Under the pieces are notes generated by a model. The model was not told the origin of the DNA, ran no database searches, and was given only the letters and a program-made list of their open reading frames with translations. Shown here piece after piece: positions 48,921-54,164 of a stretch of DNA of 64,000 nucleotides. Made by a program: the position numbers and the translations under genes. Every line of letters starts with the position of its first letter. Position 1 is the first letter of the stretch. Location: the NCBI GenBank assembly GCA_038199875.1, contig JBBPYN010000076.1:7036-71035 (forward strand), given 5' to 3'. This DNA comes from Rubrobacterales bacterium. GTDB lineage: Bacteria; Actinomycetota; Rubrobacteria; Rubrobacterales; Rubrobacteraceae.

Positions 48921-49393
48921 TACCAGTGGTATTTCTCGTTGCGGTGTATTTTTGCTGCGCGGTAGAGTTGTTCGAGGAGGACAACCCTGGCGAGGGCGTG
49001 TGGGAGGGTGATCTCCCCGAGGGACCAGAGTTCCTGGGATCTTTGCAATACGTCGGGGGAGAGGCCAAGGGGGCCACCGATTATGAAGGCCACGTGGCTG
49101 CGGCCAGAGACGCCCAGGTCTTCGAGCTTGCGGGCGATTCTTTCTGATGGGTATTGCTTGCCTCGCTCCCTTTCCAGGGAGACGACGTACGCTTGTGTGG
49201 GGAGGCACTTCAGGATGCGTTTGCCTTCCTTGGAGAGCACTTCCTGGCGGGGGCGGCAGTTTATGTCTTCTTCGGGGACTTCGATCACGTCGATGTGGAA
49301 ATAGCGGCGAAGTCGGTTTGTGTAGTCTTCGGAGCCCTTGGCGGTCCAACCCTTCGGCTTTCCGACGCAGACCAGGGTGCAGCGGCTTATCAC
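48920..49393 (-). CDS. rlmH: 23S rRNA pseudouridine-1915 N3-methyltransferase
   Basis: VCVGKPK, FIIGGPLGL, SLGEITLPHALARVVLLEQLYRA...YHW; GTGA overlap with the upstream gene. Confidence 0.92.
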   Translation of the reverse strand: MISRCTLVCVGKPKGWTAKGSEDYTNRLRRYFHIDVIEVPEEDINCRPRQEVLSKEGKRILKCLPTQAYVVSLERERGKQYPSERIARKLEDLGVSGRSHVAFIIGGPLGLSPDVLQRSQELWSLGEITLPHALARVVLLEQLYRAAKIHRNEKYHW

Positions 49394-50214
49394 TCGATGC
49401 CGAAGAGTTGTCCTGCGGGGTCCTTCTCGTCGTAGTGGTAGACGTGTTCGGTGGCTTGAAGCGGAGATCCTACTTCGATCCAGGGCGTGGGATGGCCGGC
49501 GATCGCAGCCCTTACCCTGACGCCGCCGTGACCGGCCTCCCTGAGCGCCCCGTGAACGGTTCCGCAGGCGCGGGTCGGGGAGTTGTTGGTCTTCGAAAGA
49601 TGGGCGAGGACGAGGTCTTTGAGCCCATGAGGGGCGAGCGCGACGGCCGCATCGGCCGCCTGCCGGTTGGAGAGGTGGCCGTACCGGGAGGAGATCCGAC
49701 GTTTCAAGTTCGCCGAGTAAGGGCCCCGCCTCAGCCAGTCCCCTTCGTGGTTCGCTTCGAGGACCACCGCCTCGGCCCCGCGCATGCACCTCAGAACCTC
49801 GATACCGGCCTCACCCAGGTCCGTCGCCATCGCCACCGCGTTCTCCGCGTCGGCGACACGTACGCCGTAGGTCGAGGAGTCGTGCGGGACCTCGAAGAAG
49901 GTCGCCGTAAGGCCGCCGACCGTGCACACCTCTTCAGTGGCCACCGTGTTCGCGCCGAGGGACTCACCGACGCCTGGCGCGGCGTAGACGGCTATGCCGT
50001 GGTCGCGGACCAGGGAGCGTACGCCGCACGTGTGGTCGGCGTGTCCGTGGGTCAGGATGATGGCTCCCACATCGTCGATGTCTCTGCCGATACGGTCGAG
50101 GAGTACCTCTATGCGCCGTCGCGAGAGGCCGGCGTCGACCAGAAGGCCGCCCGAGCCCGACTCCATGTAGGTCGCATTGCCCGAGCTTCCGCTCGAGAGA
50201 ACACTCAGCCGCAA
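49390..50214 (-). CDS. MBL-fold metallohydrolase (YycJ/WalJ-like)
   Basis: SGSSGNATY, LVDAG, THGHADH, EANHE, AHLSKTNN. Confidence 0.88.
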   Translation of the reverse strand: MRLSVLSSGSSGNATYMESGSGGLLVDAGLSRRRIEVLLDRIGRDIDDVGAIILTHGHADHTCGVRSLVRDHGIAVYAAPGVGESLGANTVATEEVCTVGGLTATFFEVPHDSSTYGVRVADAENAVAMATDLGEAGIEVLRCMRGAEAVVLEANHEGDWLRRGPYSANLKRRISSRYGHLSNRQAADAAVALAPHGLKDLVLAHLSKTNNSPTRACGTVHGALREAGHGGVRVRAAIAGHPTPWIEVGSPLQATEHVYHYDEKDPAGQLFGIE

Positions 50215-50289: not shown

Positions 50290-51111
50290 TCATGATCTCG
50301 TTCCGACCAGCTCTCCCTGGACTATGATGCGTTGCTTGTAGTCGGGCAGGGTGCAGGTCTGCAGCGAGACGAGCGATTTGCCTTCTGTAGGTTCCATAAC
50401 CCCGACGTTGTCCGGGTCGACGAGCATCTGGTCGGTCACCCGGTACTCGTACTTCGTCCCCTCCGTGTCCTCCAGCAGGATCTCATCGCCCTCGCCCAAC
50501 TGGTCCAGATAGTAGAAAACGAGGTAAGAGTTCGTTCCTTCGTACCCCAGTCGATGACCGGCGATGTAGGTGTTCGCGCCCTTCTGCCAGGGGAAGCCCG
50601 TGGCCGGGATGTGGACGGTGGATTTCTTGAGCTTCTCGTCCTTGACCGAGTTGTAGACGGCCACGTCAGCGAGGCCCAGGTTCGGGACGGTCAGGTAGAG
50701 GGTCTTGTCGTCAGGTCCCCCAGGGTCCCTTCCGAAGTTGAAGGGCCTGACGGCCGGTATCGCTCCCGCCGAAGACCCTGAGGCCTCGGACCCATAATCG
50801 TCCGAACCCTCCTTGTGCCAGTCCTCGTACTTCGGTGGATCCTTCTTGAGGTCTTTCTTCGAGAGGATGTCTTTGGGGAGAACGGCATCTACGGTCTTCC
50901 CCTGGTCGGCCTTCTCCCTGGCCGCCTGGTTCTCTTTATGAACCATGTCTTCACGCACGGTCGATGCCCCGCCGCCGTCATCCGGCCCTTTGCCATTCGC
51001 TCCGGCGGACTGTGGCTGGCCTGCGCAGGCCGTCAGCAGGACAAACAAGAGCGGGGCGAGTACCGCCCCGCTCAACGAGAAGAGACGCAGGTTCAAGCCT
51101 TGTCTCTCCAT
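50290..51111 (-). CDS. Sortase (class D/E-like) with lipoprotein signal
   Basis: Lipobox LLTAC; catalytic triad IAGHR, LQTCT, QRIIV. Confidence 0.85.
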   Translation of the reverse strand: MERQGLNLRLFSLSGAVLAPLLFVLLTACAGQPQSAGANGKGPDDGGGASTVREDMVHKENQAAREKADQGKTVDAVLPKDILSKKDLKKDPPKYEDWHKEGSDDYGSEASGSSAGAIPAVRPFNFGRDPGGPDDKTLYLTVPNLGLADVAVYNSVKDEKLKKSTVHIPATGFPWQKGANTYIAGHRLGYEGTNSYLVFYYLDQLGEGDEILLEDTEGTKYEYRVTDQMLVDPDNVGVMEPTEGKSLVSLQTCTLPDYKQRIIVQGELVGTRS

Positions 51112-51125
51112 GCCTCGCTCAAGCT

Positions 51126-51815
51126 CTAGACGTGTCCCAGACGGTACATTTCCGCCGGGGAGAGTTTCGGGCCACCGGTGCTCAGCATCTCTCCGCCCAG
51201 GAACGGTGCGACCGCCGCCGAGACCTCGTCCAGGGTCAGAGCCTCGGGGAAGGCCTCGTTGGCGTAAGGAACGACGCCGAGCAACATGTTGATCGCCACC
51301 ACGTGCTCGCCCTCGACGCCCTCGATGCTCCCAGCCGCCGCCAGGATGTCGGGGCTTGAGATCAGGGGCGCGGCGCCAAGGTAGGCGCCCACGCCGACGG
51401 GCTCGAAGGTGGCTGCCAGGTCCAGTACGGAGGCCTGGCTCGAGAACGCGTCTGCAGGGAAGGTCAAGGTCGGTTTCGACACCGGGGTCGCGCCCACGCT
51501 CTCAATCAAGCCTACGAGGGCGTCAACGTGCTGCGACTCGTGGCTCGCGAGGTTCTCGACGACGCCGAGGGCGTCGCCGGAGAGAACGCCGGCGTCAAGC
51601 GCCCTGGCGTAGAAGTCTGCCTCCAGATACTCCAGCGAGAGGGCGAAGTTCGCGATGTCCACGTCGTCGGTCTTCGCCGATGCCTTGCCCGCGACGAGCA
51701 TCGAGGCCGCGGTCGCGCCTGCGCCCGCTACAGCGAGAGACTTGAAGAAGTCCCTCCTGGTCCTTGGCCGGGCGAACTCGTGCGCGCCGGGAACGTTGAT
51801 CGTGTGCTTCTCCAT
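51126..51815 (-). CDS. Tat-exported ferritin-like domain protein (Ferritin_2 / PCC13-62-like) #2
   Basis: TRRDFFK signal; DIANFALSLEYLEADFY, HESQH, FEPVGVGAY, EGEH. Confidence 0.85.
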   Translation of the reverse strand: MEKHTINVPGAHEFARPRTRRDFFKSLAVAGAGATAASMLVAGKASAKTDDVDIANFALSLEYLEADFYARALDAGVLSGDALGVVENLASHESQHVDALVGLIESVGATPVSKPTLTFPADAFSSQASVLDLAATFEPVGVGAYLGAAPLISSPDILAAAGSIEGVEGEHVVAINMLLGVVPYANEAFPEALTLDEVSAAVAPFLGGEMLSTGGPKLSPAEMYRLGHV

Positions 51816-51830: not shown

Positions 51831-52490
51831 CTAACCGGTGATGCCGAACGGTTTCACGGCCGCCTGCACCTTCGGCAGCGGCAGGGCTACCTCGAAGGCG
51901 AGGTCGTTCGGCGGGTTGATGAGGTTGAGTATGTTGATCGCGCAGCGGTGCTGGCACTCGGCGTTGTGGATCGAAATAGCCGCCGCAAGTATGTCCTTGC
52001 TCTCGAGCGCCGGTGCCGCGCCCTGATACGCGCCGATACCGACGGGCTCGAAAGTGGCCGCCAGCTCGAGGAAGGTCTTCGCATCCCCGAAAGTACCGCT
52101 GGGGAAGGTGAACTCAGGCGTCGCAGGCACCTCGGCCCCTAGCTCGCCAAGGGTCGACGCGATGGCATCAGCATGTGCCATCTCGTGGTCGCGAATAGCC
52201 ACTATCTGCTCGAGGAACGCGTCTGCGAAGAGGCCGGCGTTGACGCCCTCCGCGTAGAACGTGCCTTCCAACAGTTCGAGCTGGTACGCGAACTGTAGTA
52301 TCGCCGCGTCACCCAGCCCCTCGTAGGTCTTGTACTCTCCCTCCGCCTCGGCGCGGCGGACGGCTACGCCGAAGCCACCGATACCCATCGCGGAGAGCGC
52401 GGCACCTGTCCACGCTGCCGTCTTCAGGAAGTTTCGCCGCGAGGTCTCCCGATCCAGACCGATCAGGACGCGGCTCTCTACTCCACTCAT
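51831..52490 (-). CDS. Tat-exported ferritin-like domain protein (Ferritin_2 / PCC13-62-like) #1
   Basis: SRRNFLK signal ending AEA; LELLEGTFY, HEMAH, FEPVGIGAY, ECQH. Confidence 0.85.
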   Translation of the reverse strand: MSGVESRVLIGLDRETSRRNFLKTAAWTGAALSAMGIGGFGVAVRRAEAEGEYKTYEGLGDAAILQFAYQLELLEGTFYAEGVNAGLFADAFLEQIVAIRDHEMAHADAIASTLGELGAEVPATPEFTFPSGTFGDAKTFLELAATFEPVGIGAYQGAAPALESKDILAAAISIHNAECQHRCAINILNLINPPNDLAFEVALPLPKVQAAVKPFGITG

Positions 52491-52797: not shown

Positions 52798-53385
52798 ATG
52801 GCGGATCGGGGACGACAGTATCTTATTCTTGCGGACGAGGATTTAATCTCCCTCGTGGAGACTGGCGACGCCGACGCGTTCGCGACACTCTACGACCGTC
52901 ACAGTCGTGCGGCCTTCTCTCTGGCTTACAGAATGATGGGGGAGCGCCAGGCGTCCGAAGACCTGGCCCAGGACGCGTTTCTGAAGGTCTGGCGGGGCGC
53001 GGGTAGCTATCGCGCTGAGCGTGGCAGCGTACGGCCCTGGATCCTCTCTATCGTCCACAACCGCGGCATAGATCAGCTCCGCTCCCACGCGAGCCGGCGC
53101 AGGACGCAGGATAAGATCGAGGCAACAGCCCCGCGCTCCCAACCGAGCGAAGCCTTCGCGGAGACCTGGCGCAACTCGCAGCGCGACCAGGTCAGGGAGG
53201 CGATGGGCACCCTCCCGTCCGAGCAGCTTAAGATACTGGAGCTTGCGTACTTCTCGGGGTATACACACGTCGAGATATCCGAGCTACTAAGCCTGCCCCT
53301 CGGGACGGTAAAGGGCCGGATGCGATTGGGGTTGAAGAAGATCAGGGACTACTTCGAATCGAGAGGCGCGGCGGTGCCGAGATGA
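52798..53385 (+). CDS. ECF RNA polymerase sigma factor (SigK-like)
   Basis: DAFATLYDRH, AEDLAQD-like region 2, WILSIVHNRGID, LPLGTVKGRMRLGL. Confidence 0.92.
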   Translation: MADRGRQYLILADEDLISLVETGDADAFATLYDRHSRAAFSLAYRMMGERQASEDLAQDAFLKVWRGAGSYRAERGSVRPWILSIVHNRGIDQLRSHASRRRTQDKIEATAPRSQPSEAFAETWRNSQRDQVREAMGTLPSEQLKILELAYFSGYTHVEISELLSLPLGTVKGRMRLGLKKIRDYFESRGAAVPR

Positions 53386-54164
53386 GCGAGATGAACAACG
53401 AGATCTTCGAAGACCTCAAAGACGCCTACGTCCTCGACGCCCTGCCAGAGGAGGAGAGGCGCACCTTCGAGGATTATCTCGCGGCCCACCCGGAGCGTCA
53501 GGCCGAGGTAGACGAGTTCGGCGCGGTCGCCGGCCTGCTCGCCTTCGCCCCGCACGAACAGGAACCTTCGCCGCAGCTCCGCAGCAGGGTCATGGAGATC
53601 GTGGAGTCCGAGGCGACGCCGAGGCGCGCCGGGCGAGAGTCCGTGTTCGCGAGGTTCTGGGAGAATCTCGGCGCAAGAGGTCTCGCCCTCGGTGCGGCGG
53701 CCCTGCTCGTGGTCGGCCTGCTTTCGTGGAACTTGCTGTTGCAGGACCAGGTAGGCGAACTGCAAGGCGAGGTTCAGAACGCCCAGGGCCAGGTGGATGA
53801 CCTGCAGGGCCAGGTTCAGGATGCGCAGGCCCAACGCCAGGTCAAGCAAAGCCCGACGATCGAACTCGAAGGGGCGTGGGCTGACCAGGGCGCAGACGCC
53901 GAAGTAGCCTCCATAAACGAGGACAGGACCATCCTGGTGGCCGACGACCTGCCTTCGGTGCCAGACGACCGGACATGCCAGATCTGGGTCATAAGGGGCG
54001 ACTCGCCGCCCTCCCCCAGCGGCCTCTTCCAACCCAACGGGAACATGACGGCGACACCCATTACGAACCCCATAAAGAAGGCCGACACCATAGCGGTGAC
54101 CGTCGAGCCGGCAGGAGGTTCTGACCAGCCGACGACCGAACCCGTGCTCCAGGCCAAACTATAG
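53382..54164 (+). CDS. Anti-sigma factor, RskA-like (ASD + TM + coiled coil + RskA C-terminal domain)
   Basis: AYVLDAL..EE..FE, TM segment, CQIW.I, IAVTVEPAGGSDQPT; ATGA-coupled to the sigma gene. Confidence 0.88.
   Translation: MSEMNNEIFEDLKDAYVLDALPEEERRTFEDYLAAHPERQAEVDEFGAVAGLLAFAPHEQEPSPQLRSRVMEIVESEATPRRAGRESVFARFWENLGARGLALGAAALLVVGLLSWNLLLQDQVGELQGEVQNAQGQVDDLQGQVQDAQAQRQVKQSPTIELEGAWADQGADAEVASINEDRTILVADDLPSVPDDRTCQIWVIRGDSPPSPSGLFQPNGNMTATPITNPIKKADTIAVTVEPAGGSDQPTTEPVLQAKL

Follow-up and report, generated by a model that had tools for sequence, protein, structure and literature searches.

Sorting signals are generally understood to combine a recognition motif, a membrane helix, and a charged tail, with the helix keeping the protein membrane-bound up to the moment of sortase action. 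Can a protein that has the motif but not the helix still be a sortase substrate? The question is raised by a three-gene operon, fer1-fer2-sortase, in a 64,000-nt stretch of the genome of a Rubrobacter-type soil bacterium (Rubrobacterales; contig JBBPYN010000076.1); this stretch, referred to below as the window, represents our view of the host genome. The first two genes code for ferritin-like proteins of the Ferritin_2 family (PF13668; 120.9 bits for Fer1 and 137.5 bits for Fer2, cutoff 24.7), and the third codes for a sortase (PF04203; 98.8 bits, cutoff 26.6). The initial annotation of the locus described the protein encoded upstream of the sortase as ending in a sorting-like motif with 14 non-hydrophobic residues behind it. 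This description is exact: Fer2 terminates in GGEMLSTGGPKLSPAEMYRLGHV, with 14 residues past TGG, and stretches of its tail peptide read GGEMLSTGGPKL and GGEMLSTGGPKLSPAE. We propose that Fer2 very probably serves the neighbouring lipoprotein sortase as its dedicated substrate, based on the pairing of the two genes, the conservation of the motif, the joint loss of the genes, and the recurrence of similar pairs with other classes of sortases.

We first consider the pairing within Rubrobacterales. A sortase-seeded scan, limited to one genome per species, returned 78 loci, all of them from this order. A tailed fer2 gene is located directly upstream of the sortase in 24/24 loci with an intact or near-intact orthologue of the window enzyme, and no intact orthologous sortase without fer2 was present among the loci scanned. 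The gene order rskA-sigK / fer1-fer2-sortase-MBL (where MBL is a metallo-beta-lactamase-fold gene) is maintained wherever the contigs extend far enough; Rubrobacter taiwanensis (L012) is one carrier of the operon. In every case, Fer2 from these loci ends with APF[LM]G..M[P/M/L]xTGG and a short variable stretch, e.g., MPATGGPGA, MMDTGGPVAGGTHRPV, or MPDTGGSSAAGHFGRV. When the Rubrobacterales loci were combined with 120 close database homologues, 115 distinct tails were obtained, and TGG is kept in 114 of them. Position -3 is Met in 109 of these 114 tails, position -2 is occupied by Met (52), Leu (37), or Pro (25), and position -1 is free. The part past TGG is 3-25 amino acids long and variable in sequence (Kyte-Doolittle mean, -0.81; maximum, 0.51); a single Arg close to the C terminus is common (YRLGHV, FGRV, HRAV), while other tails are uncharged and end in PGA or PGE. 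Even in homologues that are only 33-65% identical, T213 and G214 are invariant along with the metal ligands. A sortase cleavage site with its leaving peptide should combine a strict motif with a free, dispensable stretch behind it, as seen here; a folded or metal-binding element should not. Hence both the pairing and the motif support the earlier suggestion that the neighbouring ferritin is a substrate with a helix-less signal.

The 14 residues past TGG and the 14-nt gap between the fer2 stop codon and the sortase ATG leave no room for a membrane helix to be encoded. Translation that continues past the fer2 stop codon into the sortase gene, whose signal peptide is hydrophobic, was considered as a source of a helix and ruled out: with 17 nt between the last sense codon and the ATG, the two genes are in different frames. 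In the AlphaFold2 model of Fer2, a four-helix bundle (residues 51-178) and a short helix (195-205) precede a low-confidence tail that starts at residue 206 and has a predicted local distance difference test (pLDDT) score of ~51. The tail is thus predicted to be disordered, and the motif should be accessible. One metagenomic variant of Fer2 (among P0121-P0240) ends in AAAGSIAGVEGELVDTRS; a deletion seems to have joined the fer2 core to the C-terminal end of the sortase (GELV..TRS).

The rest of the 78 loci contain paralogous sortases, several of which adjoin full canonical substrates. The motifs of these neighbours are LPRTGG, LPGTGG, LPATGG, LPKTGG, LPSTGG, and, once, MPNTGG; in every case, a hydrophobic run ~20 residues long (Kyte-Doolittle 2.1-2.9) comes next, with Arg-Arg after it. 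[L/M]PxTGG, including the second Gly, is therefore the normal signal in Rubrobacterales, and by this comparison Fer2 appears to bear the normal sorting motif of its lineage stripped of the anchor. A quick maximum-likelihood tree, built from catalytic domains only, groups the fer-linked sortases in a single clade (Shimodaira-Hasegawa-like approximate likelihood ratio test [SH-aLRT] 96), whose sister group (L022/L024/L025/L067) is set amid four canonical substrates. This placement indicates that the fer-linked enzyme is a specialized paralogue and not a general sortase. The clade includes a decayed copy from L021, one of three Rubrobacter loci (with L028 and L078) that lack fer1 and fer2 but retain sigK, rskA, and the MBL-fold gene in intact form (65-92% identity). 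The sortase remnants left at these loci are 5'-truncated, frameshifted, or fragmentary, spanning residues 72-269, 143-269, or 144-196, and the deletion endpoints differ among the three.

At another Rubrobacterales locus, a surface-protein-like open reading frame (ORF; L038:7008-8162) ends in ALPGTGGLLLPVAGLAGHCS, with 13 residues past TGG, too short for a helix. It is directly upstream of another lipobox-bearing sortase paralogue and may be another pair of the short-tail type, unless the assembly is in error.

Beyond Rubrobacterales, we used Fer2 as a query in an exhaustive HMMER search of 1.84 billion cluster representatives. Most relatives stop at approximately query residue 206-208 with the sequence KPFIxx; since the wider Ferritin_2 family ends before the tail, the tail is an add-on. 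A minority have helix-less tails: P0310, which ends in QMPSTGGGGLRQPRGYVEAV, P0366, P0343 (GMPATGHGGG...), and P0260 (LPATGGIAY at the terminus). Another minority have full canonical signals: P0306 (LPRTGG, helix, and RR), P0344 (MPRTG and helix), P0335 (MPSTG and helix), P0305, and P0331; the cluster names place P0335 in Chloroflexota and P0305 in Mycobacteriales. Contigs with P0310 and P0306 show the order fer-fer-sortase, with the named protein encoded by the second fer gene, and the contig with P0343 shows the order fer-sortase. The sortases beside these three ferritins are class F-like (NF033748, 129 and 128 bits, below the cutoff of 166, and one partial match) and are not orthologous to the window enzyme.

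A second scan, of metagenomes, was seeded on the ferritin (10-sequence alignment) and was thus unbiased as to sortases; it yielded 80 loci. Tails were classed with core-only queries, and any sortase within 1.6 kb was sought. A helix-less motif tail was present at 10 loci: a sortase was adjacent at 8 of them, and the other 2 had less than 300 nt of downstream sequence. Four loci had a motif and/or a helix (3 with an adjacent sortase, 1 assessable and without it). Only tail-less ferritins were found at 57 loci, where a sortase was adjacent in 2 cases, absent from 22 assessable cases, and could not be sought in 33 because the flanks were too short. At assessable loci, then, a sortase is next to tailed ferritins in 11/12 cases and next to tail-less ones in 0/22 (Fisher p = 4e-8), although many of the positives are Rubrobacterales and independent lineages number ~3-5, not 11. 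At both tail-less exceptions, the contig stops within the second ferritin gene; with these two loci, which are doubtful, scored as evidence against the association, p = 1.4e-6. The initial annotation had suggested that the xxTGG tail be compared between ferritins encoded beside sortases and those encoded without them, with lack of conservation counting against a substrate role. The tail proved to be conserved, and it goes together with the sortase.

Among the metagenomic loci there is a third arrangement, in which a class E-like, helix-anchored sortase (GPGHWPGTP...SGHR...FAC) is encoded upstream of the fer pair (L109:733-2883, L114:2392-4624, L119:875-3088, L157:1509-3756; also L104, L127, L099, and L153). 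The second Fer protein of this arrangement ends in PFL[T/A]GAAGMGDGAAVT[R/L/Y], a conserved 13-residue tail without a helix or an obvious LPXTG. In addition, a tatA/E gene is located right after the fer pair at two loci of the Chloroflexota type (L085:1655-1831 and L086:1517-1693); there, the second Fer has a canonical MPSTG with a helix, and no sortase is adjacent.

As judged from gene neighbourhoods, the ferritin-sortase pairing recurs with three unrelated sortase lineages. Such repetition argues against the view that the genes are neighbours by chance or for regulatory reasons, the sortase serving canonical LPxTGG proteins elsewhere and the tail being a Met-rich metal-binding motif or a decaying relic. 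There are tails that would suit this view (GMGSMPATGG, MMMPGMPATG), as would the tailed fer2 of L083, which has no sortase immediately downstream. However, it is T-G-G that is invariant and not the Met residues, of which the window tail has a single one before TGG, and a relic would not hold TGG in 114/115 sequences. The strong association at assessable metagenomic loci and the absence of intact orthologous sortases without fer2 from the Rubrobacterales set also speak against coincidence, which we consider very unlikely.

We next turn to the enzyme. In agreement with the initial annotation, the His-Cys-Arg triad is intact: His186, Cys253 (within LQTCT), and Arg261 are invariant columns in an alignment of 59 sortase sequences. 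The presence of a lipobox instead of a transmembrane anchor was likewise borne out, as the N terminus, MERQGLNLRLFSLSGAVLAPLLFVLLTAC, carries L26-T27-A28-C29. Of 26 orthologues, 24 have a Cys in similar, lipobox-like surroundings (L020 and L023 do not); many of the orthologous lipoboxes read L-P-A-C, a looser fit to [LVI][ASTVI][GAS]C. The window sortase is thus predicted to be a lipid-anchored lipoprotein. Lipobox-type N termini were also seen in other Rubrobacterales sortase paralogues (L046:82-786, L070:736-1740, L038:7506-8162), which suggests that lipid anchoring of sortases is wider than the fer-linked clade. In the AlphaFold2 model of the sortase, residues 1-116 have pLDDT below 50 and are presumably disordered, and the barrel, eight-stranded in the sortase fold, is confident at 125-273. 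In some orthologues (P0050, P0044, L002:3377-4819, L015:4903-6654, L090:4635-6098), two DUF7452 copies (PF24249, 183 bits) separate the lipobox from the catalytic domain and stretch the linker to ~290 residues or more.

The window sortase scores 51.8 bits with TIGR01076, above the cutoff of 39.35, and remains under every NCBIfam sortase class cutoff: class C (NF033745), 60.8 against 160; class E, 52.7 against 160; class D, 43.9 against 165; and class GN (TIGR03784), 28.3 against 158; the class F model gave no match. P0008, a 72%-identical homologue, is named "class E sortase," but the class E model fails to back that name. Structural comparison did not single out a class either, since solved sortases of classes C, A, and E match the model about equally (Foldseek, near 1e-10).

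With regard to the proposed cargo, metal ligands E62, E65, E93, H96, E138, and E168 are invariant in Ferritin_2 alignments, and H171 is invariant or nearly so. The solved structure nearest to the Fer2 model is that of tardigrade RvY_06210 (Foldseek E = 3e-7, 25% identity). RvY_06210 and Deinococcus DRB0118 are di-metal metabolite phosphatases induced by desiccation and ultraviolet light (PMC11616004), and phosphatase activity in the Ferritin_2 group is known only for RvFeMP-1 and DRB0118 (PMC11616004). The window proteins share with RvFeMP-1 (tardigrade) and DRB0118 (Deinococcus radiodurans) the Ferritin_2 family and the conserved di-metal Glu/His ligands; they differ in forming a tandem gene pair, in their twin-arginine translocation (Tat) signals, in the sortase tail, and in having an extracytoplasmic function (ECF) sigma factor as a neighbour.

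Fer1 passes the Tat model TIGR01409 (20.2 bits, cutoff 16.7). The Tat signal of Fer2 was judged by eye, without a hidden Markov model match: T-R-R-D-F-F-K is followed by a hydrophobic stretch and an AxA-type signal-peptidase site, with cleavage expected between A-S-A and K, and R20 and F23 are nearly invariant in alignments. Both proteins are predicted Tat substrates. Fer1, always encoded upstream of fer2, is without a tail in every locus; its orthologues end in PFGLG, PFGVG, PFGVTPG, or PFGITA, and a PFG-type end is probably the usual family terminus. Three Fer2 homologues have a sorting motif and no signal peptide of their own (L080:5001-5675, L081:278-865, L097:2083-2937). At L080 and L097, the upstream Fer1 has a Tat signal, suggesting that the heterodimer is exported by "hitch-hiking." Among Fer2 proteins, there was no clean correlation between an own Tat signal and a helix-less tail; L081 has neither signal nor helix. 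Such a correlation would be expected if Fer2 were tethered by its own N terminus.

Combining these data, we arrive at an account that we regard as reasonably probable. Fer1 and Fer2, as ferritin-like di-metal proteins, would acquire cofactor and fold in the cytoplasm, where they probably form a heterodimer, before export by Tat. On the extracytoplasmic side of the membrane, the sortase, held by its lipid anchor and a disordered linker of ~100 residues, would recognize the flexible M-L-S-T-G-G tail of Fer2 and cut it between Thr213 and Gly214, releasing the 16-residue peptide Gly214-Val229. The Thr carboxyl would be passed to an amine, most likely in the wall: because homologues carry complete wall-anchoring signals, a peptidoglycan cross-bridge is the likeliest acceptor, and the enzyme complex would become fixed to the cell wall. 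The peptidoglycan of Rubrobacter is reported to contain L-Lys and an L-Ala bridge. One possibility is that Fer2 is kept near the sortase by a not-yet-cleaved Tat signal peptide, either its own or that of Fer1. We infer cleavage, acceptor, heterodimer, and retention near the enzyme from the features described above.

The gene-pairing evidence suits any outcome of cleavage, including one in which the sortase only trims Fer2. The T-G bond would then be hydrolyzed, with water as the acceptor, and removal of a short propeptide would mature or release the ferritin-like enzyme. Sortases deprived of a nucleophile do hydrolyze their substrates, slowly, and Fer2 has no helix to hold it near lipid II. 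However, some orthologues have only 3-4 residues past TGG, too few for an inhibitory propeptide, and the full canonical signals of P0306, P0344, and P0335 suggest that the original purpose was attachment to the wall. We therefore give trimming little credence.

Another acceptor would be protein. The sortase could be a ligase that joins Thr213 of Fer2 to a Lys or an N-terminal amine of Fer1 or Fer2, or that cyclizes Fer2, yielding covalent heterodimers or polymers comparable to the products of pilin-polymerizing class C sortases. The best class matches of the window enzyme, though sub-threshold, are indeed to class C (NF033745, PDB 8t28, and the top Foldseek matches); yet class A and class E structures match as well as class C ones. 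A helix-less substrate would be soluble, as would a protein acceptor, and fer1 is always co-encoded, but no conserved pilin-like Lys motif was found in these proteins, and the Lys near the mature N terminus of Fer1 (EYKTY) is missing from the L083 homologue. Mature Fer2 proteins often start with Gln, which in the N-terminal position tends to cyclize and would be a poor nucleophile. Ligation to protein is thus unlikely, and attachment of Fer2 to the wall remains our preferred interpretation.

Several points weigh against this interpretation. The second position of the motif is Met, Leu, or Pro, while characterized sortases prefer Pro or Ala, and Met-rich tails could have some other role. The tailed fer2 without an immediately downstream sortase in L083 is Rubrobacter-like, and each case of co-loss could be one deletion of adjoining genes and not evidence of a functional link. 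Staphylococcus aureus protein A that lacks the hydrophobic domain and charged tail is reportedly secreted and not anchored, according to classical work. Finally, the case as a whole rests on comparative genomics.

How does this system relate to known ones? With canonical LPXTG sorting (classes A-F, family C60) it shares the sortase fold, the His-Cys-Arg triad, and a TLxTC-like sequence (LQTCT), as well as the final T-G of the substrate pentapeptide, which is carried by a flexible C-terminal tail; sister paralogues in the same order use LPxTGG with a helix and RR. It differs in that Fer2 has no hydrophobic helix and no consistently charged tail and has Met and Met/Leu/Pro at motif positions 1 and 2, and in that the window enzyme has a lipobox, not an N-terminal membrane helix, and stays below all class cutoffs. 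Conservation of a sortase gene beside one particular substrate gene is also a feature of the class GN "marine" sortase, which pairs with a single target protein that keeps a full tripartite signal. Class GN is, however, another enzyme family, and in the present case one cargo family has recruited three sortase lineages.

The Tat-dependent, tail-anchored sortase substrates of Actinobacteria all have a C-terminal helix, which is said to be required (PMC10924467; Palmer laboratory, Microbiology 2024). Fer2 resembles them in pairing an N-terminal twin-arginine signal with a C-terminal sortase motif, and its distant homologues P0306, P0344, and P0335 fit this class exactly; Fer2 itself differs by having no helix, and ferritin-like proteins are not mentioned in that report. 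The "unusual sortase logic" seen in the locus by the initial annotation therefore holds for the missing helix but not for Tat export, which is no longer unusual for sortase substrates (PMC10924467). Our literature search found no description of Rubrobacter sortases, ferritin-sortase pairs, or natural helix-less sorting signals, and, in the literature on class F substrates and lipoprotein sortases, no prior account of such a pairing. Helix-less ferritin-sortase pairing thus appears to be a new variant of the sortase system: a probable natural substrate family that, across wide evolutionary distances, keeps the motif without the helix, nearly always with its own sortase, whose class differs by lineage. 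If cleavage does occur, sorting signals would have to be defined more broadly, and proteins of this kind would escape genome-wide predictors that count on a helix; the coupling between Tat export and sortase action becomes a question; a sortase/tag pair evolved for folded soluble proteins would match the task set to sortases in protein engineering; and a member of a desiccation-linked ferritin-like phosphatase family would be located on the surface of extremely stress-tolerant bacteria.

More tentatively, and with considerable doubt, action of sortases on soluble, folded, Tat-exported complexes without a C-terminal helix may be a separate mode that evolved repeatedly. It would include the Rubrobacterales lipoprotein sortase clade and class F-like and class E-like enzymes elsewhere. 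A Tat signal peptide still uncleaved on the substrate or on a partner subunit would serve as a transient tether; alternatively, the long linker would reach the wall zone, and mature peptidoglycan or a protein would replace lipid II as the acceptor.

The features of the locus are listed below.

Features of the fer1-fer2-sortase operon and its surroundings (window coordinates unless a locus is named)
Feature	Position	Strand	Description
Operon fer1-fer2-sortase	52490 to 50290	-	Divergent from the SigK/RskA pair
Sortase gene	50290-51111	-	273 aa; lipoprotein signal, ~100-aa disordered linker, beta-barrel (~125-273)
Sortase lipobox L26-T27-A28-C29	51025-51036	-	Direct sequence reading
Sortase catalytic residues	50329-50556	-	His186, 50554-50556; Cys253 (LQTCT), 50353-50355; Arg261, 50329-50331
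Hairpin in sortase gene	51049-51073	-	38-62 nt into the coding sequence
fer2	51126-51815	-	229 aa; Ferritin_2 protein with Tat signal, proposed sortase substrate
Fer2 twin-arginine motif T19-R-R-D-F-F-K25	51741-51761	-	Read from sequence
Fer2 sorting motif M210-L-S-T213-G214-G215	51171-51188	-	Conserved tail motif
Residues past TGG, PKLSPAEMYRLGHV	51129-51170	-	14 hydrophilic residues; with Gly214-Gly215, the predicted leaving peptide
fer1	51831-52490	-	Tail-less Ferritin_2 paralogue with Tat signal, probable partner subunit
Fer1 C terminus, KPFGITG	51831-51851	-	No tail
ECF sigma factor, SigK-like	52798-53385	+	Divergent, conserved neighbour of the operon
RskA-type anti-sigma factor	53382-54164	+	Divergent, conserved neighbour of the operon
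MBL-fold gene	49390-50214	-	Downstream of the sortase, conserved neighbour
Sortase remnants	L021:4300-4931, L028:6011-6394, L078:6061-6246		Between intact sigK and the MBL-fold gene

The hairpin within the signal-peptide region of the sortase gene has 11 pairs (9 G-C) and is followed by TTGTTTGT. It could reduce expression of the sortase relative to the ferritins or could be due to chance; three terminator-like sites were found, with 2.4 expected. The fer1 and fer2 genes are separated by 15 nt, and the sequence GAGG is located five bases ahead of the sortase ATG.

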